Positions 1 to 31,055 of a stretch of DNA of 32,000 nt are shown here, piece after piece. The position numbers and the translations under genes were made by a program. Source of the DNA: Rhodobacter capsulatus SB 1003 (lineage in GTDB: Bacteria > Pseudomonadota > Alphaproteobacteria > Rhodobacterales > Rhodobacteraceae). Within the stretch, counting starts at the first letter, position 1; every line of letters begins with the position of its first letter. The notes below the pieces were generated by a model. That model saw only the letters and a program-made list of their open reading frames with translations. It did no database searches and was not told the DNA's origin. The stretch spans positions 2,610,001 to 2,642,000 of the forward strand of contig NC_014034.1 of the NCBI RefSeq assembly GCF_000021865.1. The letters run 5' to 3'.

Positions 1-396
1 CAGAAACAGCGGCCCCGAAAGACCGAGGGACAGCACCTCCTCGGCGCACATCGCCGCCAGATGCAGATGGGTCTTTGCCCCGGGCTTCACCACCATATGC
101 CCCGAGCGCAGGCCGTAAAGCGGCTGATCGGGGCCGAGTGCCGCGGCCAGCGCCGCAAAGGGCGCATAGCCCTGACAACTCCAGATCAGCGGCGGGCGCG
201 AGCCCGCGACATTGACCCCGAAGATCAGCCCGTTCGCGCTGACCACCTCGCCCCGCCACCAGGGCCTTGTGACCGCCGCGATCTTCTTGCGCAGATCGGC
301 CACAAGCGTCGGATCGATCAGCCCCGCCCCGACGGGGGCGGCGGCGGCGGCGGCGGCCGGGCTGTCCTGCGGGGCGGGAGGCGCGATCTTGCTCAT
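1..396 (-). CDS. Thioesterase-like alpha/beta hydrolase. Only the N-terminal 132 codons are present; the gene continues past the left edge.
   Basis: The minus-strand frame is open from the ATG (complement of 394-396) to base 1. It is not in the ORF track because it is truncated. There is an ATGA overlap with the stop of the upstream gene (393-395). The translation MSKIAPPAPQDSPAAAAAAAPVG...SRPPLIWSCQGYAPFAALAAALGPDQPLYGLRSGH...LSGPLFL resembles the N-terminal part of PKS/NRPS-associated thioesterase domains. The nucleophile elbow would lie outside the window. Confidence 0.5.
   Translation of the reverse strand, partial: MSKIAPPAPQDSPAAAAAAAPVGAGLIDPTLVADLRKKIAAVTRPWWRGEVVSANGLIFGVNVAGSRPPLIWSCQGYAPFAALAAALGPDQPLYGLRSGHMVVKPGAKTHLHLAAMCAEEVLSLGLSGPLFL
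337..357. repeat. (GGC)7 trinucleotide repeat encoding Ala7 in the N-terminal linker of the thioesterase-like gene
   Basis: Read directly: ggcggcggcggcggcggcggc at 337-357. On the coding (minus) strand this is GCC x7, giving PAAAAAAAP. Confidence 0.9.
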
Positions 397-1859
397 GTTC
401 GCCGCAACCAGCCGTTGAAGTTGAACGTGGCATTATAGCCGAAGCGGTCGCAAGACTGCGTGTCGATCTCGTAATCGGCGCCGCGGCGGGCCAGAAAAGC
501 ATCGATCGCGCGCGAGGGCGGCGACAGCGCCGAGGCCACCGCCGCGCTGTCGGCGGCGTCGCGAAACGCGCCATCCTCGATGATCACGTAATCGCCCCGC
601 GTCAGATGCGGATCGACATAGTCCAGAACCGCGGTGCAGGTCGCCTCGTCATGGGCGGAATCCTCGATCACCAGCAGCGGATGGCCAAGGCGGCGCAGCT
701 CCTCGGGCGGCAGCACCCGCGCCAGATCGCGGGCGTCGCCGATGCGGGCATCGACCTGCGGATGCGCGCTGGGGGGGCGCGGCAACAGATCGATGCTGAT
801 CACCGGCCCGGGCAGGCCCAGCGCCACCATCATGTCGGCCAGCCATTCGGTCCGCCCGCCTTCGAGACTGCCGATCTCGATCACCGCGGCCGGTTTCAGC
901 TGCCCCAGCAGCGCCAGATAATTCGCCATGTCCAGCGGGTTGAGCAGCATCGCCCGGCCCTTGTAGCGATAGTCAAGGCTGCCCTTGAGCAGGTCGGTCA
1001 GCACTGCGCCGGGCAGCGCGCTGGAAAATTCCCGCGCCCCGCCGCCCTGCCCCGCCGCCGGTCTTGGCCCCGATCCCGCGGGGGCCAGCATCGGGCGGCT
1101 GGCATCAAGCCGTTCCAGCTCGGCGATCTTGCACAGGCTGCGCAGCGGGGGGCTCAGTTCCAGCCCGCCCAGCACCGCCGAGAGCGCCCCCTCGCGGTCC
1201 GCCGCCAGCCGCGGCTGCGGCACGATCACCGCCAGACCGAACAGAAGCGGCAGCCAGACGACATGAAACTCTGCCCCGCGTCCGGCCAGAAAATCCTCGA
1301 TCGCGGTCTTGACGCCATTGCGCGGACCGCCCTCCTCCACGGCATGGGCAAAGCCCGCATTGTGCCCCCCCGGCGAAAGGCCGCGTTCCCGCGGCAAGAG
1401 CCCGCCGATGCGATGGGGCTGGCGATGCGCGGCGGGGATGCGGTCGGGGCAATAGTAAAGATCGCGGCGCGCATAGGGCCATTCGACATCGTGGCAGATA
1501 GTGATCGGCGCATCGGGTGCCAGCGGGCCGTCGCCGCCGTAGATCGCCTGCAGCTCGTGATACATCGTGTACCAGTTGTGGTCGCCATCCAGCAGCACGA
1601 CATCGGCGGGCAGAAGATCGCCCAGCACGTCCAGGCTGGGGCGCGGGTGAAACACCGCCACCCCGGCGAAGCGGTCGCACAGCCGCGCCACCTCGGGCCC
1701 CGGTTCGGGATCGACGATGTCAAGCCGCGCCCCGGCGGCCTTGGCCCAGCCGGCCAGAAACCGGGAATGGCGGCCCGCATCGGCGCCGACCTCGATCACG
1801 CGGCGCGCTTCGGCGGCGTCCAGAATGGGTTTGACGACACTGGGCCAGAATTGGAACAC
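393..1859 (-). CDS. Tandem methyltransferase-fold protein. The N-terminal half is a class I SAM methyltransferase (Methyltransf_24-like). The C-terminal half is CmcI / cephalosporin-hydroxylase-like.
   Basis: 488-codon ORF with a GTG start at 1857-1859 and GGAG about 9 nt upstream. N-half motifs: VIEVGADAGRHS and LLDGDHNWY. A Pro/Gly-rich linker follows. C-half motifs: YRYKGRAMLLNPLDMANYLALLGQLKPAAVIEIGSLEGG, VIEDSAHDE and YVIIEDG. Confidence 0.8.
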   Translation of the reverse strand: MFQFWPSVVKPILDAAEARRVIEVGADAGRHSRFLAGWAKAAGARLDIVDPEPGPEVARLCDRFAGVAVFHPRPSLDVLGDLLPADVVLLDGDHNWYTMYHELQAIYGGDGPLAPDAPITICHDVEWPYARRDLYYCPDRIPAAHRQPHRIGGLLPRERGLSPGGHNAGFAHAVEEGGPRNGVKTAIEDFLAGRGAEFHVVWLPLLFGLAVIVPQPRLAADREGALSAVLGGLELSPPLRSLCKIAELERLDASRPMLAPAGSGPRPAAGQGGGAREFSSALPGAVLTDLLKGSLDYRYKGRAMLLNPLDMANYLALLGQLKPAAVIEIGSLEGGRTEWLADMMVALGLPGPVISIDLLPRPPSAHPQVDARIGDARDLARVLPPEELRRLGHPLLVIEDSAHDEATCTAVLDYVDPHLTRGDYVIIEDGAFRDAADSAAVASALSPPSRAIDAFLARRGADYEIDTQSCDRFGYNATFNFNGWLRRT

Positions 1860-1880
1860 GGGGCTGTCTCCGAAAAAGGG

Positions 1881-3656
1881 TCACGACTTGCGCCAGAAGG
1901 CGCCCGTCCAGTCGATCATGCCAAGCGGCGCGGTGATGCCGCGCGCGGCGCGGAAGCGGTCCACCGCCAGCGCGCATTGGCCAAGGGCGCCGTAATCGTC
2001 GATGATGACGAAGCCCCCCGGCGCGACGCGGTCGTAAAGCGCCTCCAGCGCCTGCAGGGTGGAGCTGTAAAGATCGCCATCAAGCCGCAGCAGCGCCAGT
2101 TTTTCCACCGCGCAGCCCGCCAGCGTGTCGGCAAAGAAGCCGGGCAGGAACCGCACCCGCGCATCGAGCAGGCCGAAATCGGCAAAGGCCCGCTCCACCC
2201 GCGCCTGCGACACGGCCAGCGCCGGGGCGCGCTCGCGCGACAGATCCAGCCCCTCGTCTTCGGGCAGCGCGGGCGGTGGCAGCCCGGCAAAGGAATCCGC
2301 CACCCAAAGGCTGCGGTCCTGCGCCCCGGCCAGATCGAGCATCGCCTTCATCAGCAGGCAGGCCCCGCCGCGCCAGACCCCGCATTCCATCAGATCGCCC
2401 GGCACCGCCTCGGCCAGGACGGTGGCGACGCAGTCCTGCAGATGGTCCAGCCGCCGCCGCCCGATCATCGTATAGCCCAGCGGCGGACCGGCCTGCGCGG
2501 TCAGCGTGTCAAGCCCCTGCGCCCGCAACCGCCGCTTTTCCGCCAGCGCCGGGGCCAGCTGGCCGGGCACGTCGTAAAGCGTCTCGCTCCAGAAGGCGGG
2601 GGGGATGTCCTTTCGGCCCCGCAGCGCATCCAGCGCAACCTCGGTTTCCAGCCCGGTCTCGTTCAAAAGCACCGCCTTGAGCAGGTCGAGATAGCGCTCG
2701 CCCGCCTCGGGGCCGGGCCGCAAGGGCGTTGCCGCCGCGCGCGGGGGGGCCGTCTGCGCCGCGGCAAGCTGGCGGGCGTAAACCTCGGCGGCGCGGCGCG
2801 ACACCGGGCCGAAATAGCTGCGCTCGGTATCCACGACCCGGATCCGGCCGCGCAGGCGGTAATATTCCTTGGCGGCGCGCTTGTGCACCTCCAGCGCGGC
2901 GGCCCCGGCATTCGTGTGGGTGCCGCCATGGATCTGATGAAAGATCCCCTCGCCCAGAACCACCACCTGCCGCGTGCCCGGATGTTCCAGCGCGCGCCAG
3001 AGCAGATCGGCATTGGCCGCCCCGCCGCCCGGGCTTTCGAAGGCCGGATCGAAGCCGCCCAGCGCCTCCCAAAGAGCGCGCGGCAGGAACAGCAGATTGC
3101 TTTCGCTGAGCGGGCCGAACCAGCCGCGCCGGACATTCTCGGCAAAGGGGCTGATGTCGAACAGCCGGTAGCCGTCGGCCTGCCAGTCGATCCCGGCCAG
3201 CAGCCGGTCCTCCCAGGCGCTGTCATAGCCCTGCTGCTGGGTCAGCCATTGCGGCCCCGGCCCGATCTGGAACGAGAGCGTGCTGACGACCGGCATCGGA
3301 TCGGTCCGCGCCGCGCGGCGACAGGCCTCCAGCAGGCCGGGGCTGGCCATCCGCGCGCCGTCGATGCTGACGCCGATCAGCGGCGCCGCCGCAAGGCCCA
3401 GCCCGTGGTTGATCGCCCGCACCGGCGAGGGCGTCGGATCGGCAAAGCGCTCGATCCGCAAATTCAGGCCCAGATCGGCGAAATCCTCGGCCCGCGGCGG
3501 CTGGCGCGAGCCGTTGTCGATCACGATCACCTCGTAATCCTCGGCGGCGATGCCCTCCTGATAGCGCGGCGACAGGCTGTAAAGCGTCCGCGGCAATTCG
3601 CGCGCCATCTCGTGGCTGATCACGATCAGGCTCAGCTCGGGCGGCTTGCGGGTCAT
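1881..3656 (-). CDS. Bifunctional fusion of a family-2 glycosyltransferase (N-terminal) and a TylF/macrocin-type O-methyltransferase (C-terminal)
   Basis: 591-codon ORF. Its ATG overlaps the ACP stop (ATGA at 3653-3656). N-terminal motif: LSLIVISHEMARELPRTLYSL...YEVIVIDNGS (GT-A/GT2). C-terminal motifs: GDLMECGVWRGG, ADSFAGLP, LRLDGDLYSST and GGFVIIDDYG (TylF family hallmarks). Confidence 0.85.
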   Translation of the reverse strand: MTRKPPELSLIVISHEMARELPRTLYSLSPRYQEGIAAEDYEVIVIDNGSRQPPRAEDFADLGLNLRIERFADPTPSPVRAINHGLGLAAAPLIGVSIDGARMASPGLLEACRRAARTDPMPVVSTLSFQIGPGPQWLTQQQGYDSAWEDRLLAGIDWQADGYRLFDISPFAENVRRGWFGPLSESNLLFLPRALWEALGGFDPAFESPGGGAANADLLWRALEHPGTRQVVVLGEGIFHQIHGGTHTNAGAAALEVHKRAAKEYYRLRGRIRVVDTERSYFGPVSRRAAEVYARQLAAAQTAPPRAAATPLRPGPEAGERYLDLLKAVLLNETGLETEVALDALRGRKDIPPAFWSETLYDVPGQLAPALAEKRRLRAQGLDTLTAQAGPPLGYTMIGRRRLDHLQDCVATVLAEAVPGDLMECGVWRGGACLLMKAMLDLAGAQDRSLWVADSFAGLPPPALPEDEGLDLSRERAPALAVSQARVERAFADFGLLDARVRFLPGFFADTLAGCAVEKLALLRLDGDLYSSTLQALEALYDRVAPGGFVIIDDYGALGQCALAVDRFRAARGITAPLGMIDWTGAFWRKS

Positions 3657-3901
3657 GCGAGCAGGCCGCTTTCGCGCAGATCGGCGATCAGCTCGTCGAT
3701 CGTGGCATTGCGCAGGACCAGCGTCGCCTCGATCTCGGTGCCGAAATGTTCTTCCATCGCGCCCGCCATCACCACCGCATCGACCGAGTCGATCCCGAGG
3801 TTGTAAAATGGCGCATCGCCGGTGATGGCGGTCGCCTCTGCCCCCGTGAGCGACACGAGAAAATCGGTGATCCAGGTTCTGACGGCGGTTTCATTCAGCA
3901 T
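3653..3901 (-). CDS. Stand-alone acyl carrier protein (82 aa)
   Basis: Internal ATG at 3899-3901 with GAGG 5 nt upstream. The translation MLNETAVRTWITDFLV...PFYNLGIDSVDAVVMAGAMEEHFG carries the phosphopantetheine-attachment motif LGIDS. The longer 232-aa track ORF would overlap the P450 gene. Confidence 0.8.
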   Translation of the reverse strand: MLNETAVRTWITDFLVSLTGAEATAITGDAPFYNLGIDSVDAVVMAGAMEEHFGTEIEATLVLRNATIDELIADLRESGLLA

Positions 3902-3939
3902 CGGGGCCTCGCAGCAAGGTATTTCGGGGGCCATGCGGG

Positions 3940-5148
3940 TCAGACCTGCACGGGAAGATTGGTCATGCGGCGCTGGTTGTGCAGCGCCCGCCAGCCGGGC
4001 CGGTCGATGCACAGCCGCGGGCGCGGCCCGTCCAGCACGGTGCCCAGCGCGATTTCGGCCTCCATCCGGGCGACCCAGGCGCCCAGGCAGTGATGCAGCC
4101 CGCCGCCAAAGGATTGCACCGGCCGCCCGGTGCGCCCGGGCAGGTAAAGGTCGGGGTCGGGATAGGCCTGCGGATCGCGGTTGGCGGCGGCGATCATCAG
4201 CACGATCTGCTGGCCCGCCCGGATCTCCTGCCCGGCCAGGGTCATGTCGGTGGCGGCGCGGCGGCGGACCTGCTGGATCGGCGCCTCCAGCCGCAAGGCC
4301 TCTTCGGCGGCACTGGCCAAGAGCTTCCGGTCCGCCGCGACGCGGTCGCATTGATCGGGATGGTCGAGCAGCAGCCAGAGCGCATTGCCGATCAGCGCCG
4401 AGGTGGTCTCGAAGCCCGCCATGAAGACGAAACTGGTCAGGGCGGTCAGCCGGTCGTCGTCAAAGGGCGCCTCGGAGGCGTCATTGCGGCTGACCAGAAG
4501 CGACAGGCCATCGTCCCGCGGCGCAAGGCGGCGGGCCGTGATCTCGGCGCGCAGGAAGGCATGGGCCTCGGTCAGGCGCCGTTCGGCGGCGCGGAAATCG
4601 CGGATCGAGGCGCCGCGGTTGAGGATCACCGGCACCCCCGAAAGCGTCTTCGCCAGCCAGAGCGCATCGGCATCGGCCAGCCCCAAAAGCCAGCCCATGA
4701 ACAGCGGCGGCAGCGGATCGGCAAAGCCGGTCATCAGATCCAGACCGCCGTCGCGGACCAGCGGCGCATGAAGGCTGCGGGCGATGCGCGCCACCTCGGC
4801 GGCGCAGGCGGCCTGCGGGCGCAGCGCCAGAAGCCGCGCCACCAGCGCGCGCAGCGGCCCATGCGCGGGCGGGTTGCGGAAAAAGATCGCCATGTCAAGC
4901 AGCCGCAACAGCTCGACCGGGTGGTCGCCCAGCGCCTGCGAGACATCGGCGACGAACTGCCCCAGATCCAGCGTCAGCAGGCCGGGGTTGCAAAAGGCCG
5001 CGCTGACCTCTTGATGGCGCAGCAGCACCCAGGCCTGTTCGGTCTCGGTCCAGAACACCGGCGCGCGGGCGCGCAGCTGCGCGTAGACCGGATAGGGGTC
5101 GTCGCGCAACAGCGGCGCAAGACTGTTGAACGATCCAAAATCAACCAT
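3940..5148 (-). CDS. Cytochrome P450 monooxygenase (402 aa)
   Basis: ATG at 5146-5148 with AGGAGG 5 nt upstream. Heme-thiolate loop FGGGLHHCLG, I-helix AGFETTS and ExxR (EALRLE) are all present. The start overlaps the stop of the ligase gene by 8 nt. Confidence 0.9.
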   Translation of the reverse strand: MVDFGSFNSLAPLLRDDPYPVYAQLRARAPVFWTETEQAWVLLRHQEVSAAFCNPGLLTLDLGQFVADVSQALGDHPVELLRLLDMAIFFRNPPAHGPLRALVARLLALRPQAACAAEVARIARSLHAPLVRDGGLDLMTGFADPLPPLFMGWLLGLADADALWLAKTLSGVPVILNRGASIRDFRAAERRLTEAHAFLRAEITARRLAPRDDGLSLLVSRNDASEAPFDDDRLTALTSFVFMAGFETTSALIGNALWLLLDHPDQCDRVAADRKLLASAAEEALRLEAPIQQVRRRAATDMTLAGQEIRAGQQIVLMIAAANRDPQAYPDPDLYLPGRTGRPVQSFGGGLHHCLGAWVARMEAEIALGTVLDGPRPRLCIDRPGWRALHNQRRMTNLPVQV

Positions 5149-6874
5149 CGGAACCTCCTGAAAATGAAAGATGATCTGTCTTCGTGACCGGGCAGCGGGC
5201 CAGCTCTCCGGCCAGATGGGCGGCGCGGCAGGCGCCGCGGCGGATCTTGTTGCTGGTGGTGCGCGGCAAGGTGCCCGGCCGCACCAGCACGACTTCAAAC
5301 GGGCGCACCCCGAAGCCCTCGCAGATCGCCGCCGTGACCGCCTGCGCCGCCAGATCCAGCGCCGGATCGGCCTGATGGCCGCGCCGGACCTCCTGCACCA
5401 CGACCAGCGCCTCGGCCCCGTCTTGCGGCACGGCAAAGGCGGCGGCAGTGGCGGAAAGCGCGGGATGGGCGCGGGTGGCGGCGGCCTCGATATCCTCGGG
5501 GTGGTGCTTGGCGCCGCGGATGATGACGATATCCTTCAGCCGCCCGACGACGGCCAGCCCCTCGCCCCGCATCTGCCCCAGATCGCCGGTGCGCAGGAAG
5601 GCCGGGCCATCCTCGTTCGCGATCCGCGCCCCGAAACTGTCCCGGCTGCGGTCGGGCTGCTGCCAGTAGCCCGCGCCGACATGCGGCCCGGCCACCCAGA
5701 TCTCGCCCACCTTACCCTCGGGCAGGCGTTCGCGGGTTTCGGGATCGACGATGGCCAGCTGCTGCCCCGCGGCGCCAAGGCCGCAGATCACCCGCTCGGG
5801 CTGGTCGGCAGATCCGGGCAGCGTGGCAAGCCCGCTGCCCGCCGGCCCGCCCGAGACGAAAAGCGTCGTCTCGGCCATGCCGTAACAGGGAAACAGCGCC
5901 TTCGGGTCGAAGCCCGCCGGGGCAAGACGGGCGGCGAAGCGGCGCAGATCCTCGGCCCGGACCGGCTCGGCGCCGCAAAAGGCGACGCGCCAGCTGGAGA
6001 GGTCAAGGCCCTCGATCTGCTCGGGGCGCAGGCGCTCGGCACAGAGCGCATAGGCGAAATTCGGCCCGCCGCTGCTGGTGGCGCGGTGGCGCGCGATCGC
6101 CTGCAGCCAGCGCAGGGGCCGCTGGATGAAATCCATCGGCGCCATCAGCACCGTCTCGGCCCCCAGATAAAGCGGCTGCAGCATCCCGCCGACCAGCCCC
6201 ATGTCGTGAAACAGCGGCAGCCAGCTGACCATCCGCGTCGTGCTGTCATGGCCAAAGGCGCGGCGGATCATCTCCATGTTGGCGATCAGATTGGACTGGG
6301 TGACGATCACCCCGCGCGGATCGGCGGTCGAGCCCGAGGTATATTGCAAGAAGGCCGGATCTTCGGGTTGCGGCGGTTCGGGTTGCGGCGGATCGCCCGC
6401 GGGGGCGGGCCCGTCGGTGGCGATCCAGTCCAGATCGGGCCGCAGCGCGGCCACCGCGTCGCGGATCGTCGCCTCGGCGGCCAGCGCAGCCGAACACAGC
6501 ACCAGACGGGGCCGCGCATCGGCGGCAATCGCGGCGATCCGCGGGGCAGAGCGCGCAGGCGTGATGAAGGGCGTCGGCACCGCGATGGCGCCTGCGTAAA
6601 GACAGGCCCAGAAGCCGATGACAAAGGGCAGACCCGGCGGATAGACCAGAAGCACGGTCCGCCCGCGCGCGCCCCGCGCCAGCAGCTCGGCCGCCCAAAG
6701 CCGGGCCTGACGGTCAAGCCCGGCATAGGTCAGGCAGGTCCCCTCGCCCTCGCCGCGGTCCAGAAACCGCAAGGCGATCTTGTCGGGGCAGTTCCGGGCG
6801 TGCCGTTGCAGCACCTGCGCCAAGGTGGCATCGGGCCGCGTGCCGGGAAGGCCCGGCGATGTCCCCTCTGTCAT
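5141..6874 (-). CDS. Fatty acyl-AMP ligase (FAAL-type adenylate-forming enzyme, 577 aa)
   Basis: ATG at 6872-6874 forms an ATGA overlap with the radical SAM stop. Motifs: FLQYTSGSTADPRGV, LPLFHDMGL, YGMAETT, LRTGDLG and GRLKDIVIIRGAKHHPEDIE. There is no fused carrier or condensation domain. Size and motifs resemble the FadD32/FAAL class. Confidence 0.9.
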   Translation of the reverse strand: MTEGTSPGLPGTRPDATLAQVLQRHARNCPDKIALRFLDRGEGEGTCLTYAGLDRQARLWAAELLARGARGRTVLLVYPPGLPFVIGFWACLYAGAIAVPTPFITPARSAPRIAAIAADARPRLVLCSAALAAEATIRDAVAALRPDLDWIATDGPAPAGDPPQPEPPQPEDPAFLQYTSGSTADPRGVIVTQSNLIANMEMIRRAFGHDSTTRMVSWLPLFHDMGLVGGMLQPLYLGAETVLMAPMDFIQRPLRWLQAIARHRATSSGGPNFAYALCAERLRPEQIEGLDLSSWRVAFCGAEPVRAEDLRRFAARLAPAGFDPKALFPCYGMAETTLFVSGGPAGSGLATLPGSADQPERVICGLGAAGQQLAIVDPETRERLPEGKVGEIWVAGPHVGAGYWQQPDRSRDSFGARIANEDGPAFLRTGDLGQMRGEGLAVVGRLKDIVIIRGAKHHPEDIEAAATRAHPALSATAAAFAVPQDGAEALVVVQEVRRGHQADPALDLAAQAVTAAICEGFGVRPFEVVLVRPGTLPRTTSNKIRRGACRAAHLAGELARCPVTKTDHLSFSGGSDG

Positions 6875-7834
6875 GCCGCCCCCCCTTGCGAAAACCGCGT
6901 CACCGCCTCGGTCGGGGGGCCAAGCCCCCAGTCCGCGCCCATCTCGCAGCGGTTGCAGACCGGCATCGCCGCCCGGCGCGTTTCCAGCGCCCGCAAGAAG
7001 GCCGCGCGCCGGTCCCCGGCCCGCAGCATGCTCAGGCGGTCCTGCCCCAGATTGCCAAGCAGCGCCGCCCCCGGATGAAAGCAGCATGGCACGATGTTGC
7101 CGCGATGATCGACGTAAAGATTGCCCGGATCGGCGGCGATCGCACAGCCGCCCGTGCCCATCGTCACCCGATCGCGGGCGCGGTCGCGCAGGCTGTCGGG
7201 CAGCTGGATCCAGCCGCGGAATTCGGGATGAATGCCGAAAGGCCCCAGCACCTCTCGCCAGCGCTGCCGGTACTCGGGCGCCTCGATCACGCAGCGCGCC
7301 TGCAGGCGCAGGGCCGGATATGTCGCCGCCAGATCCCGGGCAAAGGCCAGAAACGTCATCAGTTTCGACCACCTGGCCGGTGGCCGCAGGGCTTCGTAGC
7401 TGGCCGGCGTGCCGTCGCCGTCGCAGCTGACCGTCAGCAGATTGAGCGCCCCCATCGCCACCAGCGCCTCCAGCCGGTCGCGGGCCTCGGATTGCGCATT
7501 GGTGGAAATCTCCACCCAATGCCGCCGGATCGGGCTTTCCAGCAGGATCCGGCCCAGCTCTTCCAGCGCGGGATGCAGCAGCGGCTCGCCGTAGTTGAAC
7601 AGCCGTATCAGCGTGATCTTCGGCACGTCGATGTTGGACAGGCAGCGCGCGAACAGCTCGGGCGCGATGAACTCGGGGCGGGGATCAAGGCCGGAATTCG
7701 GGCAGCCGACACAGCGCAGCTGACAGCCGCCGACGATGTCGAAATGCAGCGTGGACAGCGACAGCGGCCTCCCGGCTCCCCCCCCCGGCCAAAGCCCCGG
7801 CCCGACTCGTCTGTCGCGGCGACGGATGTGTCAT
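6871..7834 (-). CDS. Radical SAM enzyme with a C-terminal SPASM/twitch-like Cys cluster. The N-terminus is out of frame at a G9 tract, so this is a possible frameshift, sequencing indel or phase-variable start.
   Basis: The core frame is open from 7830 to the stop at 6871-6873. Motifs: HFDIVGGCQLRCVGC (CxxxCxxC at 7702-7725), FNYGEPLLHP, ISTNA, VSCDGDG, then GGCAIAADPGNLYVDHRGNIVPCC...PVCNRC. No ATG/GTG/TTG lies in frame between the TGA at 7831-7833 and the Cys motif. The nearest ATG (7832-7834) is in another frame. The 5' boundary is therefore uncertain. Confidence 0.7.
7778..7786. repeat. C9 (plus strand) / G9 (coding strand) homopolymer, the longest in the window
   Basis: Read directly: ggct ccccccccc ggcc. 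It lies 17 codons upstream of the CxxxCxxC motif, at the point where the reading frames change. Confidence 0.95.
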
Positions 7835-8149
7835 GGGCTTTCGCAGCCTCCCGAAGTTGCGCAACCCGCGGCTGCAGATGGCGGACATGACCAAAGACGA
7901 CCCGGTCGGCTGGCTTGTTGATGAGTTTGCCCTTCAACACCGACCCCCGGACGTCTTTGGCAAAGGTCGGACCAACGGCGTCACGGCACAATCCGAAACG
8001 ACACGCCCCGCAGGACATGCCCGGCAAGTACAGGAAGACCATCGTAAATCCCGGTGGTCAAGGGGGATTCGTCGGCGCTTGCGCGGCGTCGCCCGCAGTT
8101 GCCACAGCCGCGGCAAGCACGCCCCGCGCCCCCCGGCCGTCGTCGCCAC

Positions 8150-8200
8150 GCATAAAAAATACCAAAACTCGATAAACGCAGTGGACTTTTTTCCGAAGAT
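8150..8200. promoter_or_regulatory. AT-rich patch, a candidate shared divergent promoter / Lrp-binding region
   Basis: This is the only AT-rich segment (cataaaaaataccaaaactcgataaacgcagtggacttttttccgaag) in the roughly 400-bp gap between the biosynthetic operon and the Lrp gene. No transcription start can be derived from sequence alone. Confidence 0.3.
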
Positions 8201-8239
8201 GGCATTCCCTTGCCAAAGACGCAGCTTCGGAGAGCCCGG

Positions 8240-8713
8240 ATGGCCCAGCTTGACCTGATCGACCGCAAGATTGTTTCTGAACTGATGCGCGACGCGACGC
8301 TGCCGGTGGCGCAGATCGCCGACCGGGTCGGGCTGTCGCAGACGCCGTGCTGGAAGCGGATCCAGAAACTGGAAGCCTCGGGGGTGATCGAAAAGCGCGT
8401 CGCGCTGGCCAATCCGCAGGAACTGGGGCTGGGCCTGACCGTCTTTGTCGCCATCGAGGCCCCCGATCACGGCCCGGAGTGGCGGGCCGCCTTTGCCGCC
8501 GCGGTCGAAAAACTGCCCGAAATCATGGAGGTCTGGCGCATGGCGGGGGAAATGGATTACCTGCTGCGCGTCGCGGTCTCGGACATGGCGGCCTATGACC
8601 TGCTTTACCGCCGCCTGACCGATGCGGTGCCGATCCGCAACATCACCTCGCATTTCGCGATGGAGCGGCTGCGCCACACCACCGCCTATCCGATCGACAC
8701 CAAAAGCTGGTAG
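8240..8713 (+). CDS. Lrp/AsnC-family transcriptional regulator (157 aa)
   Basis: ATG at 8240 with GGAGAG 5 nt upstream. The N-terminal HTH is LDLIDRKIVSELMRDATLPVAQIADRVGLSQTPCWKRIQKLEASGVI. The C-terminal part is an RAM/AsnC_trans_reg-like domain. Confidence 0.9.
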   Translation: MAQLDLIDRKIVSELMRDATLPVAQIADRVGLSQTPCWKRIQKLEASGVIEKRVALANPQELGLGLTVFVAIEAPDHGPEWRAAFAAAVEKLPEIMEVWRMAGEMDYLLRVAVSDMAAYDLLYRRLTDAVPIRNITSHFAMERLRHTTAYPIDTKSW

Positions 8714-22874: not shown

Positions 22875-22920
22875 GGCGCCGTCGGTCAGGGTTCATTTCC
22901 CCCGAGGATGCGACCTCCCG

Positions 22921-23006
22921 TCGCAGCGGCAATCGAAATTGCGCGATCCCGGCACGCTTTCGGATTTTCGCTGCGATATTGCGCATCTTTCGCAGCGATA
23001 TTGCAT
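22921..23006. promoter_or_regulatory. Repeated operator-like element TTTCGC(W)GCGATATTGC x2 (22-bp period) plus a degenerate third copy
   Basis: Read directly. The two good copies are tttcgctgcgatattgc at 22966-22982 and tttcgcagcgatattgc at 22988-23004. A related tcgcagcg...attgc lies at 22921-22942. All are 50-130 bp upstream of the PAS gene start (22874). Confidence 0.4.
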
Positions 23007-23035
23007 TTTCCCGCGGGGAAACCGCCGCAACGGGT

Positions 23036-23101
23036 CGAAAAATCCGGCACAGGCGGCGATGATGCCCGCGCGGCAGCGCAGAAGCGGCACCGCCTGTGCG
23101 G
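23036..23101 (-). terminator. Possible terminator after the FAD oxidoreductase gene
   Basis: A 10-bp inverted repeat (ggcacaggcgg / ccgcctgtgc) is followed on the minus strand by CGGATTTTT. The loop is long (about 33 nt), so confidence is low. Confidence 0.3.
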
Positions 23102-23167
23102 GCCGCAGCGCAGCGCCCGACGGGATCACGGACAGGGGATTCGGCGCAGGCGTCCGTCGGCGCCGGC

Positions 23168-24556
23168 TCAGCGGCCGGTCAGCCGGTTCGCCAGCCGCGC
23201 AAGGGGAGAGGTCCGCGGATCGCCGCCCGCCGCCTCTTGCCGGTCGGCCAGAGCGTAAAGCTGATACATCCCGTGCACGCCCAGCCAGCGCAGCGGCTCG
23301 GGCTCCCATTTGCGCGGATGCCGGTTGACCCAGGGCAGCCCGGTCCGGTCCGTGTCGCGCCCAAGCACCAGATCGGCCAGCGTCCGCCCGGCCAGATTGG
23401 CGGTGGAAACCCCCAGCCCGACATAGCCCCCCGCCCAGCCGATCCCGGTCGCCGGGTCCAGCCCGACCGTCGCGCACCAGTCCCGCGGCACGCCCAGCAC
23501 GCCGCACCAGGCATGATCCAGCCGCAGCCCCCGCACCTGCGGCAGCATGCGATAGAGGATCTCGGTCAGCTTCGCGATCGTCGCGGCCTGGGTCTGCCCG
23601 TTCCGGTCGGTGCGCGAAGCGAAGCGATAGGGCACGCCGCGCCCGCCCATCGCGATGCGGCCCTCGCGGGTGCGCTGCGCATAGCAATAGGCATGCGCGG
23701 CATCGCCGAAAAGCTCGGCCCCCGTCCAGCCGATCTCCTCCCAAAGCGCGGCGGGAAGCGGTTCGGTCACCACCATCGCGCTGTTGAGCGGCAGCCATTC
23801 GCGTTCCTGCCCGGGGATGCCATGGGTGAACCCCTCGGTCGCGCGCAGGATCCGCGGCGCCCGCACCGTGCCGCGCGCGGTCGTCACCCGCCCCGGGGCA
23901 AGGCCGGTCACGCAGGTGTCCTCGTAGATCGTCACCCCCAGACGCTCGACCGCCGCGGCCAGACCGCGCACCAGTTTCGCGGGCTGCACCCGGGCCACGC
24001 CATGCGTCACCAGCGCGCCAAGCACCCCCGGCACCCGGATCCGCGCGGCGGCGGCAGCAGCGTCGAGCAGCTCCACCCGGTCGGGGCCGATCTCCCAGGC
24101 GCGTTCTTCGGCCAGGGTGTCGCGCAGCCGCTGCAGCTGCGCCGGATTGCGCGCAAAGGTCAGGCAATCGGTCTTCACGATATCGGCCGCGATCGCCTCG
24201 GCGCTGCAGACGCGCAGGATTTCCGCCACGCTGTCGCGCAGCTGCCGTTCCAGCGCGATCACCCCGGCGCGGCTGCCGCCTTGCAGATATTTCCCGCGGC
24301 TCCAGCCGAATTCGCCCGAGCACCAGCCGCCGTTGCGGCCCGAGGCGCCAAAGCCCGCGAAATCCCGCTCGAGCACCGCAATCGAGAGCGACGGCGCAAG
24401 CTGCTTCAGATAATAGGCGCTCCACAGCCCGGTGAAGCCCGCGCCGATGATGCAGACATCGACCGCCAGATCCCCCGGCAGGGGCGCGCGCCGGGGCGGC
24501 AGCCCGCCGATATCGGCAAACCAGAACGACACCTGCCCATTCGTCGTCACATCCAT
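23168..24556 (-). CDS. FAD-dependent oxidoreductase of the DAO family (PuuB/OrdL-like)
   Basis: 462 codons with GGGGGA upstream of the ATG. The N-terminal dinucleotide fold is VDVCIIGAGFTGLWSAYYL. A DAO-type core follows. Confidence 0.9.
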   Translation of the reverse strand: MDVTTNGQVSFWFADIGGLPPRRAPLPGDLAVDVCIIGAGFTGLWSAYYLKQLAPSLSIAVLERDFAGFGASGRNGGWCSGEFGWSRGKYLQGGSRAGVIALERQLRDSVAEILRVCSAEAIAADIVKTDCLTFARNPAQLQRLRDTLAEERAWEIGPDRVELLDAAAAAARIRVPGVLGALVTHGVARVQPAKLVRGLAAAVERLGVTIYEDTCVTGLAPGRVTTARGTVRAPRILRATEGFTHGIPGQEREWLPLNSAMVVTEPLPAALWEEIGWTGAELFGDAAHAYCYAQRTREGRIAMGGRGVPYRFASRTDRNGQTQAATIAKLTEILYRMLPQVRGLRLDHAWCGVLGVPRDWCATVGLDPATGIGWAGGYVGLGVSTANLAGRTLADLVLGRDTDRTGLPWVNRHPRKWEPEPLRWLGVHGMYQLYALADRQEAAGGDPRTSPLARLANRLTGR

Positions 24557-24733
24557 CGCATCCCCCGACCCGCCCGTCTGCCGCGCCCGGCAAGGGTCGG
24601 CCAGCCCCCCGGGGAATGCAAGAAGAACCGCAGGCCGGTCGCGGGCCGCCGCCGCCTCGCGGCATCTTTATGCATCGTGGCTTGACCTTTGCCCGCCCAG
24701 AGGCCAGCTTGCGCCGACTTTTGGGAGCGATCC

Positions 24734-26026
24734 ATGGCCACACGCACCGCGCCGTTTTCCGGCTTCGAATTCCTGATCGCCTGGCGCTACCTGCGCGCCC
24801 GCCGCGCCGAGGGCGGCGTCAGCGTGATGACCTGGATCAGCCTGATCGGCATCATGCTGGGCGTGGCCGCGCTGATCATCACGCTGGCCGTGCGCGCGGG
24901 CTTTCGCGCCGAATTCGTCGACACGATCCTGGGTTCGAACGCCCATGTCACGGTCTATTCCGCGCCGATGGAAGTGGCGCCCGAGACCGGGATCTTTTCC
25001 AGCCTGATGCCCGATTACGCCGCGCGCGCCGCGCGGATCGCGCAGGTGCCGGGCGTCACCCGGGCGGCGCCGCTGATCCGGGGTCAAGTGATGGCGACGA
25101 TGAACGACCGCTCGAACGTCGCGGAAGTCTATGGGATTTCTTATGAAAACCTGATGACCATTCCCCGCGTCGCGCATTCGGCGCAGATCGACGGCGAGAT
25201 CGAAAGCTTCGGTCAGGGCATCGCCATGGGGTCGGAACTGGCGCGCGAGCTGGGCGTGGCGGCGGGCGACACGGTCAAGCTGATCTCTCCGAACGGGGTC
25301 AAGACGCCGTTTGGCGTCTCGCCGCGGGTGAATGCCTATACCGTCGTTTATGTCTTCACCGCCGGGCGCTGGGACATCGACCGCACCCGCATCTACATGC
25401 CCTTTGCCGAGGCCCAGAGCTTCTTCAACCGCGAGGGTGGCGCCGACGAGATCGAGGTGATGGTCAAGGACCCCGAGCATGTCGATGACCTGACGCCGCA
25501 GCTGATCGCGGCGGGGGGCGCGGGCACGATGCTGTGGTCTTGGCGCGATGCCTCGGGCAGCTTCCTGCGCGCGCTGACGATGGAGGACAACGTGATGTTC
25601 GTGATCCTCTCGGTGCTGGTCTTGATCGCGACGATGAACATCACCTCGGGGCTGATCATGCTGGTGAAGAACAAGGGCCGCGACATCGGCATTTTGCGCA
25701 CCATGGGGCTGACCGAGGGCTCGGTGATGCGGGTGTTTTTCCTCTGCGGGGCCTTTACCGGCACGATCGGGACGGCGCTGGGCGTCGGGCTGGGGGTGCT
25801 TTTCGCGCTCAACATCAGCCATGTGATGGATGCGGTGAACTGGGTCAGCGGCGGCGGCGCCTGGGATCCGTCGATCCGCGGCATCTATGAATTGCCTGCG
25901 AAACTGCTGCCCTGGGACGTGGCCAAGGCGGTCGTCCTGGCGCTGGGGCTCAGCTTCGTGGTGACGATCTTTCCGGCCCGCCGGGCGGCGCGGCTCAATC
26001 CGGTGGAGGCGCTGCGCTATGAATGA
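24734..26026 (+). CDS. lolE: Lipoprotein-releasing system permease (LolC/LolE family)
   Basis: ATG 24734 with GGGAG upstream. The N-terminus is [14 protein letters not shown]. It has a MacB-like periplasmic domain and a C-terminal FtsX-type helix bundle. It overlaps lolD by 8 nt. Confidence 0.9.
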
Positions 26027-26702
26027 GGTGTTGCGGCTTGATCGGCTCGAAAAGGGCTACAACCGGGGCAAGGCGAATGAAATCATCGTGCTGCGCGGGG
26101 CCTCGCTGGTCATTCCGCGCGGGCAGGTGGTGGCGCTTGTCGCGCCTTCGGGGGCGGGGAAATCGACGCTTCTGCATATTGCCGGGCTGCTCGACACGCC
26201 CGATTCCGGCCGGGTGATCGTGAACGGGCAGGATCTGACCGGGGCGAAGGACGCGGCCCGCACCGTCGCGCGGCGCGAGGCTTTGGGCTTTGTCTATCAG
26301 TTTCACCATCTGCTGCCCGAATTCACCGCGCTGGAAAACATCGTGCTGCCGCAGCTGGCCAATGGCACCGCGCGCAAGGCGGCCGAGGCCCGCGCGCAGG
26401 AATTGCTGGCGCGCGTCGGGCTGGCGGCACGCGCCGGGCACCGGCCCTCGGCGCTCTCGGGGGGGGAACAGCAGCGCGTGGCCTTTTGCCGGGCGCTGGC
26501 GAACCGCCCTGCCCTGCTTTTGGCCGACGAGCCCACCGGCAACCTGGACCCGACCACCTCGGAAACCGTGTTCTCGGCGCTGATGGAACTGGTGCGCGCG
26601 ACCGGGCTTTCGGCGCTGATCGCGACGCACAATCTGGAGCTGGCCGCGCGGATGGACCGGGTGTTGCGGCTGAGCGATGGCCAGCTGGTGGAGGCAAAAT
26701 GA
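26019..26702 (+). CDS. lolD: Lipoprotein-releasing system ATP-binding protein
   Basis: Walker [10 protein letters not shown], the LolD-typical block [20 protein letters not shown], signature LSGGEQQRV and Walker [12 protein letters not shown]. Confidence 0.9.
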
Positions 26703-27701: not shown

Positions 27702-28020
27702 ATCTCTCTCCTCGTATTGGCCGAAGGCGACATTGCCCCCGGACGTGCAGCCAGGTCTTCCAAGTCTTCCGGCTGCCCCGAAAAGGGAGCGGTAGGAAAG
27801 TCCAAGTTCACGCAAGGGGAAGCGTGCCATACACATTCCAAAAATCAACGGCCAAAGCGCCGCAGGCGCTGATTTCAAAGGCTGCGACATTTTTGCATCT
27901 CCAAGTTGAAGATGGAATAATTTCAGGGCGTTGTCAGGCGGTCAAAAGCCGGAACAAAGCGGAAACACCGGCACCACCGGCCCGCCCCGCGCCATAGGCG
28001 CGCAGGGCTTGAAACGGAAC

Positions 28021-28049
28021 GGGACGCCACAGGTTTCCCGTGGCGTCCC
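28021..28049 (-). terminator. Stem-loop just downstream of thrS
   Basis: gggacgccac aggtttccc gtggcgtccc forms a 10-bp stem 29 nt past the thrS stop. On the minus strand it is followed by GTTCCGTTTC. Confidence 0.5.
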
Positions 28050-28077
28050 GCATGATCCGGCAGTCGTTTCAGCGCCT

Positions 28078-30024: not shown

Positions 30025-30083
30025 ATGTCCTCCTCGTCGGTTTGGCGGCTACAAAGCGCCCGGTTGCGGGTTATGATGCGCCG

Positions 30084-30112
30084 GGTATGCGACGCGGCGG
30101 CAGGCGTGTCAA
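30084..30112 (-). promoter_or_regulatory. Candidate sigma-70-type promoter for thrS
   Basis: On the minus strand, TTGACA (30107-30112) is followed by a 17-nt spacer and CATACC (30084-30089), about 60 nt upstream of the thrS ATG. The -10 element is weak. Confidence 0.3.
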
Positions 30113-30133
30113 CCGTGGCGCTTTTGCGCAGGC

Positions 30134-30154
30134 AAAAGGGGGGCGCTGCCCCCC
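30134..30154 (-). terminator. Rho-independent terminator ending the outer-membrane-protein transcript
   Basis: On the minus strand, GGGGGG CAGCG CCCCCC is followed directly by TTTT. Confidence 0.55.
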
Positions 30155-30255
30155 TCTTGGCTTCGGCCAATTCGCCCCCCGAGGTATTTGGAACAAGATG
30201 AAAAGACCATGGGTTCATCTTGCCTCAAATATCCCGGGGGGAGTCCTGAAAGGAC

Positions 30256-30272
30256 GGGGGGCAGAGCCCCCC
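30256..30272 (-). other. G6-N5-C6 stem-loop immediately 3' of the outer-membrane-protein gene
   Basis: ggggggcagagcccccc has the same architecture as the hairpin at 30138-30154 but lacks a clean T-tract. Confidence 0.5.
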
Positions 30273-30299
30273 TCCCGGGTCTTTCTCAAGCGTTCCGGC

Positions 30300-30929
30300 T
30301 CAGAACCGGAAGCCCGCGCGCACCTGCACGGTGTTGAAGTTGGTGTCGACGCTGCGCGCAGAGCCGTCGAAATCGGTGCTCAGCTCGCGGCGCATCAGTT
30401 CGGCGCCGACCGACCACTTGTCGTTCACCGCGTAATCGACGCCCAGACCGTAGTTCATGCCATCGGCCGCGCCATTCGTCTGGCCGTCGCCGTTCTTCCA
30501 GTCGCCGCGCGAATAGCCGACGAAGGCATAGGGCAGCGCCTTGCCATAGGCCATCCCGGCGCGGGCTTTCAGGTCGATCATGTTGTCGAACTTGCCCGGC
30601 GCCCCATCGAGGTTGAAATCGGTGGCCTGGGCCGCGATCTCGCCGCCGTAGACAAGCGCGCCCGACTGCAGGTTGTAGCCGCCAAAGACCCCGTAGCTGC
30701 CGCGGCCCATGCCAAAGGCGGCACCGCCGGGCGCGTAGCTGGCGCCGCCGCCGGTGACAGAGCCGCCGGTGATCCCGGCATAGAACCCGTCCCAGGCTTG
30801 CACGGGCGCCGGTGCCGGGGTCGCCGCCACCGTCGGTTCGCTTTCGACCACGGGCGGCGTCAGGCCACCGGCAAGGGCGGGGGCGGCAAGGCTGGCCATC
30901 GCGACGATCGCAACACTGAGCTTTTTCAT
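30300..30929 (-). CDS. Outer-membrane beta-barrel protein (Omp25/Omp31/OMP_b-brl family, 209 aa)
   Basis: ATG 30927-30929 with GAGGAAG upstream. Signal peptide: MKKLSVAIVAMASLAAPALA. It has Gly/Tyr-rich alternating strands and ends in the aromatic C-terminus VRAGFRF. Confidence 0.85.
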   Translation of the reverse strand: MKKLSVAIVAMASLAAPALAGGLTPPVVESEPTVAATPAPAPVQAWDGFYAGITGGSVTGGGASYAPGGAAFGMGRGSYGVFGGYNLQSGALVYGGEIAAQATDFNLDGAPGKFDNMIDLKARAGMAYGKALPYAFVGYSRGDWKNGDGQTNGAADGMNYGLGVDYAVNDKWSVGAELMRRELSTDFDGSARSVDTNFNTVQVRAGFRF

Positions 30930-31055
30930 CTTCCTCTTCCTTCGGCAAAGATGCGTCATGCCAGCAAGATTTGCATTTTTCCGAACAAGTTCAATATTTT
31001 GACCGGGAACATCGAAACACGATCGCTCAACAGCCCGTGCCCGTGACGTGAGGGA

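Follow-up and report, generated by a model that had tools for sequence, protein, structure and literature searches.

Gene organization of the locus

The window, the 32,000-nucleotide stretch of Rhodobacter capsulatus SB1003 DNA analysed here, carries seven co-directional genes on the minus strand at positions 1-7834, together with a divergent regulator gene. These features are, from left to right:

1..396, minus strand: gene 7, thioesterase-fold domain plus C-terminal Ig-like domain (codons 1-132 of 368 are inside the window, the remaining ones to its left)
393..1859, minus strand: gene 6, tandem class-I methyltransferase, N-terminal Methyltransf_24 half and C-terminal CmcI/rhamnosyl-O-methyltransferase half (Pfam)
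1881..3656, minus strand: gene 5, fusion of a GT-A (GT2) domain, at about residues 1-310, with a sugar O-methyltransferase domain of the TylF/MycF/NovP type (Pfam, PDB)
3653..3901, minus strand: gene 4, stand-alone acyl carrier protein (ACP), 82 aa (Pfam PP-binding, 52.8 bits)
3940..5148, minus strand: gene 3, cytochrome P450, 402 aa (Pfam p450, 88 bits)
5141..6874, minus strand: gene 2, stand-alone fatty acyl-AMP ligase (FAAL), 577 aa (Pfam, NCBIfam, PDB)
6871..7834, minus strand: gene 1, radical SAM protein with SPASM/twitch-type C-terminal Fe-S domain (Pfam), frameshifted here by one extra G
7778..7786, minus strand: poly-G tract (G9 as read on the coding strand) near the 5' end of the gene 1 reading frame; an indel hot spot that causes the frameshift
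7835..8209, no strand assigned: upstream intergenic region, presumed promoter, shared with the divergent regulator gene (ORF and Pfam context)
8210-8713, plus strand: divergent AsnC/Lrp-family regulator gene (ORF and Pfam context)

The genes of the run are joined by ATGA overlaps at 6871-6874, 3653-3656 and 393-396, by an 8-nt overlap between genes 2 and 3 at 5141-5148, and across gaps of 38 nt (3902-3939) and 21 nt (1860-1880). All junctions are exactly as described in the initial annotation, the same junction geometry was found in other genera, and the proposal that FAAL, ACP, P450, radical SAM-SPASM, GT2-TylF, tandem methyltransferase and thioesterase-like proteins are encoded by a single tightly coupled operon is supported. 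The motifs quoted there are all present in the translations, and the absence of ketosynthase, condensation and acyltransferase domains was borne out for the cassette. Its domain calls scored above the Pfam gathering cut-offs except for Thioesterase (25.1 versus 26.4 bits), for which the fold is supported by an AlphaFold model. The expected continuation of the cluster to the left of base 1 proved wrong beyond the remainder of gene 7, which is the last gene. Neither an exporter gene nor a nucleotide-sugar gene is present in the cassette, the proteins of which all appear soluble and cytoplasmic. No sigma-70 consensus site was found in the presumed promoter region 7835-8209.

Fatty acyl-AMP ligase, P450 and acyl carrier protein

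The gene 2 product matched Pfam AMP-binding with 248.7 bits, and its top NCBIfam matches were FAAL models. In PDB it matched the FAAL domain of 7R7E-G (1e-139), a domain of a cyanobacterial olefin synthase whose crystals also contained a long-chain acyl adenylate, as well as Legionella FAAL 3KXW (1e-107), FadD23 (3e-90) and, also strongly, FadD32. The identity to the 7R7E-G domain is about 50% over the whole domain length, and the ANL adenylation motifs YTSGSTADPRGV, YGMAETT and GRLKD are present, so that the ANL core motifs are combined with full-length similarity to proven FAALs. FAALs carry a specific insertion of about 20 residues, which blocks the CoA-ligase conformation. Gene 2 has an insertion, but a shortened one that is variable among orthologues: the segment from YGMAETT to IVDP is 48 aa long in gene 2 and 44 to 61 aa in its orthologues, whereas the 7R7E-G/7R7F FAAL domain has 65 aa. 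In all the cassettes, a stand-alone ACP gene is located in the same operon as the FAAL gene.

The P450 motifs FGGGLHHCLG, AGFETT and EALR are present in gene 3 and in most of its orthologues, and comparison with PDB places the enzyme as CYP107-like (5CJE, 3e-48; BioI, 2e-38). The motif LG(I/L)DS of the carrier protein, gene 4, is likewise found in most orthologues.

Glycosyltransferase, methyltransferases and thioesterase

The C-terminal part of gene 5 matched Pfam TylF with 344.4 bits over the whole profile, included the metal/SAM-region motif LDGDLYSST, and was similar to the O-methyltransferases 4CDZ, 5I10, NovP and MycF in PDB (1e-61 to 1e-52). The N-terminal match to Glycos_transf_2 was borderline (25.6 bits; cut-off 23.3), and a profile of this domain matched GT-A structures at 5e-5 in the N-terminal nucleotide-binding part only. 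In this GT2 domain D47 (in VIDNGS) is invariant, and an invariant IDGAR occupies the canonical DxD position. Gene 6 scored 47.6 bits with Methyltransf_24, and its CmcI-like half belongs to the CmcI family, with 70.5 bits for RMNT_CmcI (cut-off 23.2) and a match to the CmcI structure 2BR3 at 3e-13. It stays below the equivalog level for the mycobacterial rhamnosyl O-methyltransferase (NCBIfam NF045824, 56 bits versus a cut-off of 400).

The full 368-aa sequence of gene 7, taken from another assembly (L002), was used for the Pfam Thioesterase comparison given above. Its nucleophile elbow, GGNCQG, carries Cys and not Ser, and C136, D182, H191, D207 and H213 are invariant. In the AF2 model (pLDDT 82), the N-terminal domain matched by Foldseek the NocB thioesterase (6e-9) and the Pks13, fengycin and DEBS thioesterases, and the C-terminal domain matched CARDB/NBR1. 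With an alpha/beta-hydrolase fold, the elbow and the Asp and His residues, gene 7 is predicted to have the type I thioesterase fold. The family is small, consisting of about 25 protein clusters, all at least 54% identical, in 5.8 billion proteins. In an NRPS encoded on a plasmid, a 34%-identical copy with GGNCQG immediately follows a PCP domain.

Radical SAM gene and its poly-G tract

The upper end of the operon had been set at 8042 by inclusion of an ORF at 7608-8042. This ORF does not share the reading frame of the radical-SAM core, resembles non-coding junk and was rejected as a gene; the real start is the ATG at 7834-7832. In the window this natural ATG is out of frame with the gene 1 core because of the G9 tract at 7778-7786, and CQLRCVGC, although in frame with ORF 6871-7626, is encoded 5' of the first start codon of that ORF. 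The description of seven intact genes is therefore untrue for the SB1003 window, gene 1 being frameshifted and its boundaries misread.

Besides the window, the G9 tract is present in SRR7644044 and SRR7644041, two independent read-assemblies. The majority of other R. capsulatus assemblies, among them L002-L006, carry G8, and this allele encodes an intact gene 1 protein of 320 aa (P0054). Other forms of the tract are G11-C-G6 in strain B6, G6 in DSM 1710 and SP108, and a 12-bp deletion in CP198951. The G8 (in-frame) and G9 (out-of-frame) genomes are separated by 3 substitutions in 11.9 kb. The locus has one mark of phase-variable loci, a length-polymorphic repeat within the reading frame with in- and out-of-frame alleles among near-identical strains, and is a candidate for reversible switching within a clonal population.

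Gene 1 scored 31.8 bits with Pfam Radical_SAM and 30.1 bits with SPASM (cut-off 21.5), and the motifs CQLRCVGC (CxxxCxxC) and GEPLLH are invariant across 15 homologues. Besides C137, the invariant cysteines are C230, C250, C251, C293 and C296 in the C-terminal part, a set that appears more consistent with one auxiliary cluster of the twitch-like type. No sequence similarity of gene 1 to any solved structure was detectable. The nearest structures to its AF2 model (pLDDT 74) were BtrN (the best), BlsE, DesII and SpeY (E-values 1e-8 to 2e-7, TM about 0.5), EpeE and SkfB being also among the structural matches; judged from this model, gene 1 appears nearest to enzymes whose substrates are sugars, cyclitols or nucleotides. 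Relatives of 42-48% identity are found in Wzm/Wzt glycan loci beside CmcI-type methyltransferases. The neighbours of gene 1 homologues included Wzt (21 loci), Wzm (17), CmcI-like methyltransferases (14) and GT2-methyltransferase fusions (14), and most of this radical-SAM family occurs without FAAL or ACP.

Distribution and genomic context

The full cassette was found in R. capsulatus, Sinirhodobacter, Nitrospirillum, Bradyrhizobium, Rhizobium oryziradicis, Fuscovulum and Neotabrizicola and on one metagenomic contig, and the catalytic motifs are kept in the orthologues from the seven genera. No flanking genes were common to different genera among those carrying the cassette; the flank comparison detected the AsnC/Lrp-family regulator beside it in R. 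capsulatus only. From this pattern the cassette appears to be a self-contained, horizontally mobile seven-gene unit of soil and water bacteria. Because the cassette is closed and its neighbours differ in every genus, an acceptor encoded next door was excluded. Searches of the literature by enzyme combination and by locus tag yielded no description of the operon or of its product, in agreement with the earlier view that this gene set is not a described pathway.

The GT2 domain of gene 5 has more than 1000 stand-alone homologues. Among the distant ones (<60% identity, upstream sequence present), 31 of 62 loci have a co-directional ACP gene whose end is no further than 150 nt upstream. Where long flanks were available (22 loci), FAAL was present in 13 and P450 in 12. 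Roughly one half of the GT2 subfamily has neither FAAL nor ACP nearby, and trios of GT2, CmcI and radical SAM genes without FAAL were found in L151, L160 and L166. In a glycopeptidolipid-like NRPS locus of Mycobacterium, a GT2 homologue of 52% identity adjoins a TylF methyltransferase. Judged from these associations, the GT2 domain appears to be the hub of the cassette.

Proposed pathway and alternative explanations

The best reading is still that an ACP-tethered chain is oxidised, glycosylated, O-methylated and released, as originally suggested, and it is strengthened by the ACP-to-GT2 adjacency in 31/62 loci. We estimate a probability of about 0.5 that the operon makes a small, ACP-templated O-methylated hydroxy-fatty-acid glycoside or glycolipid. 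As a first step, the FAAL would adenylate a free long-chain fatty acid and load it onto the stand-alone ACP, the enzyme family following from the data and the substrate being our suggestion. The P450 would then hydroxylate the ACP-bound chain, and the GT-A domain of gene 5 would glycosylate the new hydroxyl with a nucleotide sugar, presumably a housekeeping one; the cassette is without sugar-synthesis genes. The three methyltransferase domains (TylF, Methyltransf_24 and CmcI-like) may O-methylate the sugar, and the twitch/SPASM radical-SAM protein may modify it further, with oxidation, epimerisation and deoxygenation as conceivable reactions. Finally, the Cys-thioesterase/Ig-like protein would free the product from ACP by hydrolysis, lactonisation or transfer. 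The step order and the regiochemistry of the P450 are guesses. The radical-SAM step is probably missing in SB1003, because slippage from G8 to G9 frameshifts gene 1. As the GT2 match is borderline and DxD is replaced by IDGAR, we infer glycosyl transfer to the acyl-ACP hydroxyl only from context. The sugar part could also act on another acceptor, as FAAL and ACP do not accompany some half of the GT2 subfamily and the majority of the radical-SAM relatives. The lack of exporter and nucleotide-sugar genes in the cassette and the shortened, variable FAAL insertion likewise speak against this reading.

One such acceptor would be an existing cell-surface polysaccharide, the LPS O-chain or capsule. 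In this scheme the GT2, radical-SAM and methyltransferase proteins add and modify a terminal methylated sugar, FAAL, ACP and P450 supply a hydroxy-acyl group, and the thioesterase-like protein transfers this group onto the glycan in the manner of the Pks13 thioesterase. The Pks13 enzyme, an acyltransferase, is among the structural matches of gene 7, the Ig-like domain of which belongs to a type that many glycan-binding proteins carry, and the radical-SAM homologues in Wzm/Wzt loci (including L010 and L070) and the trios without FAAL point in the same direction. We consider this scheme unlikely: the cassette is located in every genus away from Wzm/Wzt or other shared glycan genes, its proteins all look soluble and cytoplasmic, and the ACP-to-GT2 gene pair is kept far beyond glycan loci. 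Less likely still, the operon of SB1003 is a decaying remnant without product. The gene 1 frameshift in the window and in both read-assemblies would fit decay, but most assemblies lack it and the G tract that holds it varies in length; the six remaining genes are intact and (near-)identical across strains, with the 3 substitutions in 11.9 kb noted above, and orthologues in seven genera retain all catalytic motifs.

It is improbable that the ligase activates an acid other than a fatty acid, leading to a glycosylated and methylated non-lipid small-molecule natural product. The shorter FAAL-specific insertion (48 versus 65 residues in 7R7E-G), a P450 closest to CYP107-type tailoring enzymes and a TylF domain closest to antibiotic sugar O-methyltransferases are consistent with such a product; against it stand the identity of about 50% to the 7R7E-G FAAL domain, the strong matches to FadD23, FadD32 and Legionella FAAL, and the absence of genes for making an alternative acid. 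A RiPP-type peptide pathway marked by the radical SAM/SPASM protein, in which the remaining genes tailor a lipopeptide, is very improbable. Peptide maturases typically carry a SPASM domain, and EpeE and SkfB were among the structural matches, but the intergenic gaps are only 21 and 38 nt, no small ORF is conserved across genera inside the cassette or in the 600 nt 5' of gene 1, and the top structural matches and genomic contexts of gene 1 are carbohydrate-related.

Taking the ACP-templated glycolipid together with the wider GT2 subfamily, we tentatively suggest, as a possibility that we regard as doubtful, a widespread and undescribed kind of lipid pathway in which a GT-A enzyme works directly on an ACP-tethered, P450-hydroxylated chain without ketosynthase or condensation domain; soil metagenomes commonly contain a FAAL-ACP-GT2 core, in most cases together with a P450. 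The R. capsulatus type would then be its richest form, with glycan-type radical-SAM and methyltransferase tailoring of the sugar and release by a Cys-thioesterase/Ig-like didomain, and its fully tailored form would be switched on and off by poly-G slippage in gene 1.

Comparison with known systems

The analogy with mycobacterial glycolipids (glycopeptidolipids and phenolic glycolipids) holds at the level of enzyme families only. In mycobacteria a FAAL of the FadD type passes a fatty acid to a carrier protein, and rhamnosyl and fucosyl sugars are O-methylated by enzymes of the TylF and CmcI families; the cassette would work likewise, and has three methyltransferase domains, the number expected for tri-O-methyl sugars. 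The locus is not of the mycobacterial type, however, since PKS, NRPS, PapA-type acyltransferase and MmpL exporter are all absent from the cassette and its flanks. Its glycosyltransferase is GT-A/GT2 in contrast to the GT1 Gtf type of mycobacteria, it includes P450, radical SAM and Cys-thioesterase in addition, and its hosts are Alphaproteobacteria.

Systems of the WbdD/Wzt type are ABC-transporter-dependent O-antigens with chain-terminating methyl caps. Distant gene 1 homologues adjoin Wzm, Wzt (with Wzt_C) and methyltransferase-GT2 fusion genes, whereas the cassette is without Wzm/Wzt, kinase and coiled-coil terminator and carries FAAL, ACP and P450 instead. The best structural neighbours of gene 1, the twitch/SPASM enzymes BtrN, SpeY, DesII and BlsE, act on sugars or cyclitols, and its family is embedded in glycan loci, but its Cys pattern fits neither the full 7-Cys SPASM motif nor BtrN exactly. 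P450 BioI, which acts on acyl-ACP (PDB 3EJB complex), is comparable to gene 3, a soluble CYP107-like P450 whose gene accompanies that of an ACP. Gene 3 is closer to 5CJE, its best match, than to BioI, and the cassette has no biotin genes and no sign of C-C cleavage.

In the sophorolipid pathway of yeast, a P450 hydroxylates a fatty acid and the new hydroxyl is glycosylated, followed by tailoring and lactonisation. The logic proposed for the cassette, from hydroxylation through O-glycosylation and sugar tailoring to a possible lactone-forming release, would be the same, the likeness being at the level of mechanism only: the cassette would operate on a carrier-protein-bound chain, with unrelated bacterial enzyme families and with methylation in place of acetylation.

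Organization of the seven-gene operon

The seven genes are aligned on the minus strand and are listed below in the order in which they would be transcribed, gene 7 being represented by its first 132 codons.

Features of the operon (window coordinates)
6871-7834, minus strand, gene 1: radical SAM/SPASM protein
5141-6874, minus strand, gene 2: FAAL, 577 aa
3940-5148, minus strand, gene 3: P450, 402 aa
3653-3901, minus strand, gene 4: ACP, 82 aa
1881-3656, minus strand, gene 5: GT2 + TylF, 591 aa
393-1859, minus strand, gene 6: Methyltransf_24 + CmcI-like, 488 aa
1-396, minus strand, gene 7: first 132 codons of a 368-aa protein

Exact matches for six of the operon proteins were found among ADE86163-ADE86169, in agreement with the origin of the window from R. 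capsulatus SB1003. The junctions described in the initial annotation, with an ATGA overlap at three of them, an 8-nt overlap at one and gaps of 38 and 21 nt at the other two, were confirmed, and its domain calls all scored above the Pfam gathering score except for the Thioesterase domain of gene 7 (25.1 bits against a cut-off of 26.4). The operon thus includes three methyltransferase domains, the TylF domain of gene 5 and the Methyltransf_24 and CmcI-like halves of gene 6. In a promoter and terminator scan, sites of either type were no more frequent within the operon than in shuffled sequence. From the gene arrangement, it is reasonable to infer a single transcript for genes 1-7.

Elsewhere in the window, the segment 8210-22152 looks ordinary, carrying divergent AsnC/Lrp and GntR regulators, a branched-chain-amino-acid-type ABC transporter, an aldehyde dehydrogenase, a second ABC importer and a sigma-54 activator. 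The Pfam search was negative for the ORFs at 22893-25822 and 27931-31046.

Frameshift within the poly-G tract of gene 1

The upper limit of the operon, initially set at 8042, turned out to be the start of a 144-aa ORF (7608-8042) in a frame other than that of the radical-SAM core, which rules out gene 1 as 6871-8042. The translation of this ORF is low-complexity and junk-like, and it is probably not a gene. The CxxxCxxC motif (CQLRCVGC) is in frame with the ORF 6871-7626, yet lies 5' of the first start codon of that ORF. Alignment of the R. capsulatus genomes located a poly-G tract at 7778-7786, nine G long (G9) on the gene 1 coding strand in the window and eight (G8) in 5 of the 6 other genomes; the G8 genomes differ from the window by 3 substitutions in 11.9 kb. 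With eight G, translation from the ATG at 7834 would yield an intact gene 1 protein of 320 aa. An error in the reference sequence was ruled out, because the same G9 was present in assemblies of the SRR7644044 and SRR7644041 reads, which are independent sets. The gene 1 allele of SB1003 is out of frame, and negative results obtained in this reference strain would therefore mislead. Gene 1 was called as an intact 338-aa protein on 97 contigs and as a truncated 251-aa protein on 4.

The tract is located within the N-terminal leader of gene 1, which is not conserved. Its further alleles include G11-C-G6 in strain B6, a 12-bp deletion in CP198951 and G6 in both DSM 1710 and SP108; since the tract-length alleles differ between strains, the tract is a hot spot for indels, and it may act as a phase-variation switch or be a mere hot spot. 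Two complete-genome assemblies, L001 (CP198954.1) and L005 (CP198942.1), have additional homopolymer indels at several places in the operon, and their gene calls are fragmented. These indels are most likely sequencing errors, so that the tract lengths of both assemblies are unreliable, and the G12 allele of L001 was discounted on account of the other homopolymer indels in the same assembly. The sole further homopolymer of at least 8 bases in the window is a G8 at 26459-26466 on the plus strand.

Conservation of the cassette as a closed unit

The seven-gene cassette, with its order and junction geometry kept, was detected in Sinirhodobacter ferrireducens, two Nitrospirillum species, Bradyrhizobium sp. 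SRS-191, Rhizobium oryziradicis, a Fuscovulum MAG and Neotabrizicola, as well as in a metagenomic contig where it is flanked by gyrA, serC and pheA. Past gene 7, every R. capsulatus genome has a convergent AAA-ATPase gene and then DksA- and UbiH-like genes. Comparison of the cassette neighbourhoods identified no flanking gene common to different genera, nor any conserved accessory gene for an exporter, sugar synthesis or a regulator. The expectation that the cluster continues to the left of base 1 is refuted by the gene order past gene 7 and by these unshared flanks. The identical gene set within unshared flanks indicates that the cassette is a closed, mobile unit. As had been noted, it contains no ketosynthase, condensation domain or acyltransferase; exporter and nucleotide-sugar genes are also lacking from it.

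A six-gene variant without gene 7 and with a convergent radical-SAM gene was found in three loci (L012, L049 and L031), the first of which is flanked by three sulfotransferase genes. Sulfotransferase genes recur beside variants and part homologues of the cassette (L012, 5730-9790 and 17382-18779; L070, 6787-7800; L097, 6863-7903), hinting that some products of the cassette family may be sulfated. In Nitrospirillum sp. BR 11828 (L007, 14384-16148), the GT2 and TylF halves appear as two gene calls, whereas they form one gene in the other Nitrospirillum (L018); the split is due either to a frameshift or to an error of assembly.

Relatives of the encoded enzymes

Across its full length, the FAAL shows about 50% identity with the 7R7E-G FAAL domain from PDB (1e-139), with further matches to the Legionella FAAL 3KXW, FadD23 and FadD32. 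Its FAAL-specific insertion is shortened (48 versus 65 residues) and variable among orthologues. The P450 is of a generic CYP107-like type with complete heme motifs; its matches include BioI, an enzyme acting on acyl-ACP, though not as the top match. The TylF domain matched structures of sugar O-methyltransferases (1e-61 to 1e-52), and the CmcI-like half of gene 6 matched the CmcI structure at 3e-13.

The GT2 domain is a member of a large family, with more than 1000 matches, whose proteins stand alone and are about 285 aa long. In a metagenome scan, 31 of 62 GT2 homologues of less than 60% identity had an ACP gene ending at most 150 nt upstream on the same strand; among the 22 GT2 loci with long flanks, FAAL was present in 13 and P450 in 12. 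The minimal form, P450 followed by FAAL-ACP-GT2, is that of Reyranella (L098). Soil and peat metagenomes (L103-L161) commonly contain the FAAL-ACP-GT2 module, usually with P450 and often accompanied by a TPR/alpha-beta-hydrolase protein, polysaccharide pyruvyl transferase and PhyH dioxygenases; in one locus (L149), GT2 is fused to a PhyH-like domain. A second recurrent module of the same GT2 subfamily is the contiguous GT2-CmcI-radical SAM trio without FAAL or ACP (L151, L160 and L166). The R. capsulatus cassette thus unites two recurrent modules, FAAL-P450-ACP-GT2 and GT2-methyltransferase-radical SAM, which have this GT2 in common. In a Mycobacterium, a glycopeptidolipid-like NRPS locus contains a GT2 homologue (52% identity) adjacent to a TylF methyltransferase, a sulfotransferase and a GT28-type glycosyltransferase.

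As a sequence search of PDB with the gene 1 protein gave no match, its structure was predicted (pLDDT 74). The nearest structures were BtrN, BlsE, DesII, SpeY, viperin and AbmM, the peptide epimerase EpeE also being present. The substrates of these six enzymes are sugars, cyclitols or nucleotides. About 65 more distant radical-SAM homologues (42-48% identity) are located in beta- and gammaproteobacterial glycan loci, where Wzt is among the neighbours in 21 loci, Wzm in 17, and CmcI-like methyltransferases and GT2-methyltransferase fusions in 14 each. The gene order in Ectothiorhodospira is sulfotransferase, GT92-like, CmcI, radical SAM and GT2, and one homologue (P0133) is fused to TPR and TylF domains.

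The gene 7 protein is an orphan: among 5.8 billion proteins, its family comprises only about 25 clusters, with identities of 54% or more throughout, and a gap separates these from generic thioesterases. Its model (pLDDT 82) consists of two domains. The N-terminal one has the fold of type I thioesterases, with matches to that of NocB (6e-9) and to those of Pks13, fengycin and DEBS, and the C-terminal one is an Ig-like sandwich of the CARDB/NBR1 type. The nucleophile elbow, GGNCQG, is invariant, with Cys in place of Ser. A relative of 34% identity with the same GGNCQG lies directly C-terminal of the PCP domain in a plasmid-borne Methylomagnum NRPS of the architecture C-A-PCP-[thioesterase-Ig]-sulfotransferase-TPR, supporting a probable role of gene 7 in off-loading from a carrier protein. 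This NRPS is encoded at 8764-14820 of L179 (Methylomagnum ishizawai plasmid pRS11DPr2), with ACP, TauD dioxygenase and radical-SAM-like genes upstream and, further downstream, genes for the ATP-binding part of an ABC transporter and for several glycosyltransferases. The radical-SAM-like gene was rejected as a relative of gene 1.

Candidate pathway

The best-supported reading is a pathway of FAAL, ACP, P450, GT2, methyltransferases, radical SAM and thioesterase. FAAL would load a fatty acid onto ACP, P450 would introduce a hydroxyl into the bound chain, and the GT2 domain would glycosylate the resulting hydroxyacyl-ACP. The sugar would then be O-methylated by the three methyltransferase domains and modified by the radical-SAM enzyme, and the Cys-thioesterase would release the product from ACP. 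The analysis establishes the families of the enzymes, the operon structure, the conservation and self-containment of the cassette and its associations with neighbouring genes, while we infer the substrates, the step order, the hydroxyacyl-ACP as acceptor of GT2 and how release takes place.

In the main rival reading, the cassette decorates an existing surface polysaccharide, the thioesterase serving as an acyltransferase. The location of gene 1 relatives in glycan loci is in agreement with such decoration; the cassette itself, however, is independent of any glycan locus. A RiPP pathway is unlikely, because a search for precursors detected no conserved precursor ORF.

If the proposed pathway is correct, it would represent a new class of O-methylated glycolipid for Alphaproteobacteria, give a function to the large GT2 subfamily that accompanies ACP and FAAL genes in soil metagenomes, and provide the first handle on a radical-SAM family common in O-antigen-type loci. 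Since R. capsulatus is a genetic model organism, this orphan operon of clear enzymology is directly testable by deletion or by repair of one G.

Comparison with known systems

The initial annotation did not recognise the gene set as a described pathway, and the main texts of the literature, searched for the enzyme combination and for estimated locus tags, were likewise silent. All the enzymes of the operon belong to known families, and a carrier-bound lipid, tailoring and thioesterase release follow a familiar logic. What is unusual is the direct coupling of FAAL, ACP and GT2 without a chain-building enzyme, together with the orphan Cys-thioesterase/Ig didomain, the radical-SAM enzyme of glycan type and the poly-G frameshift in the reference strain SB1003.
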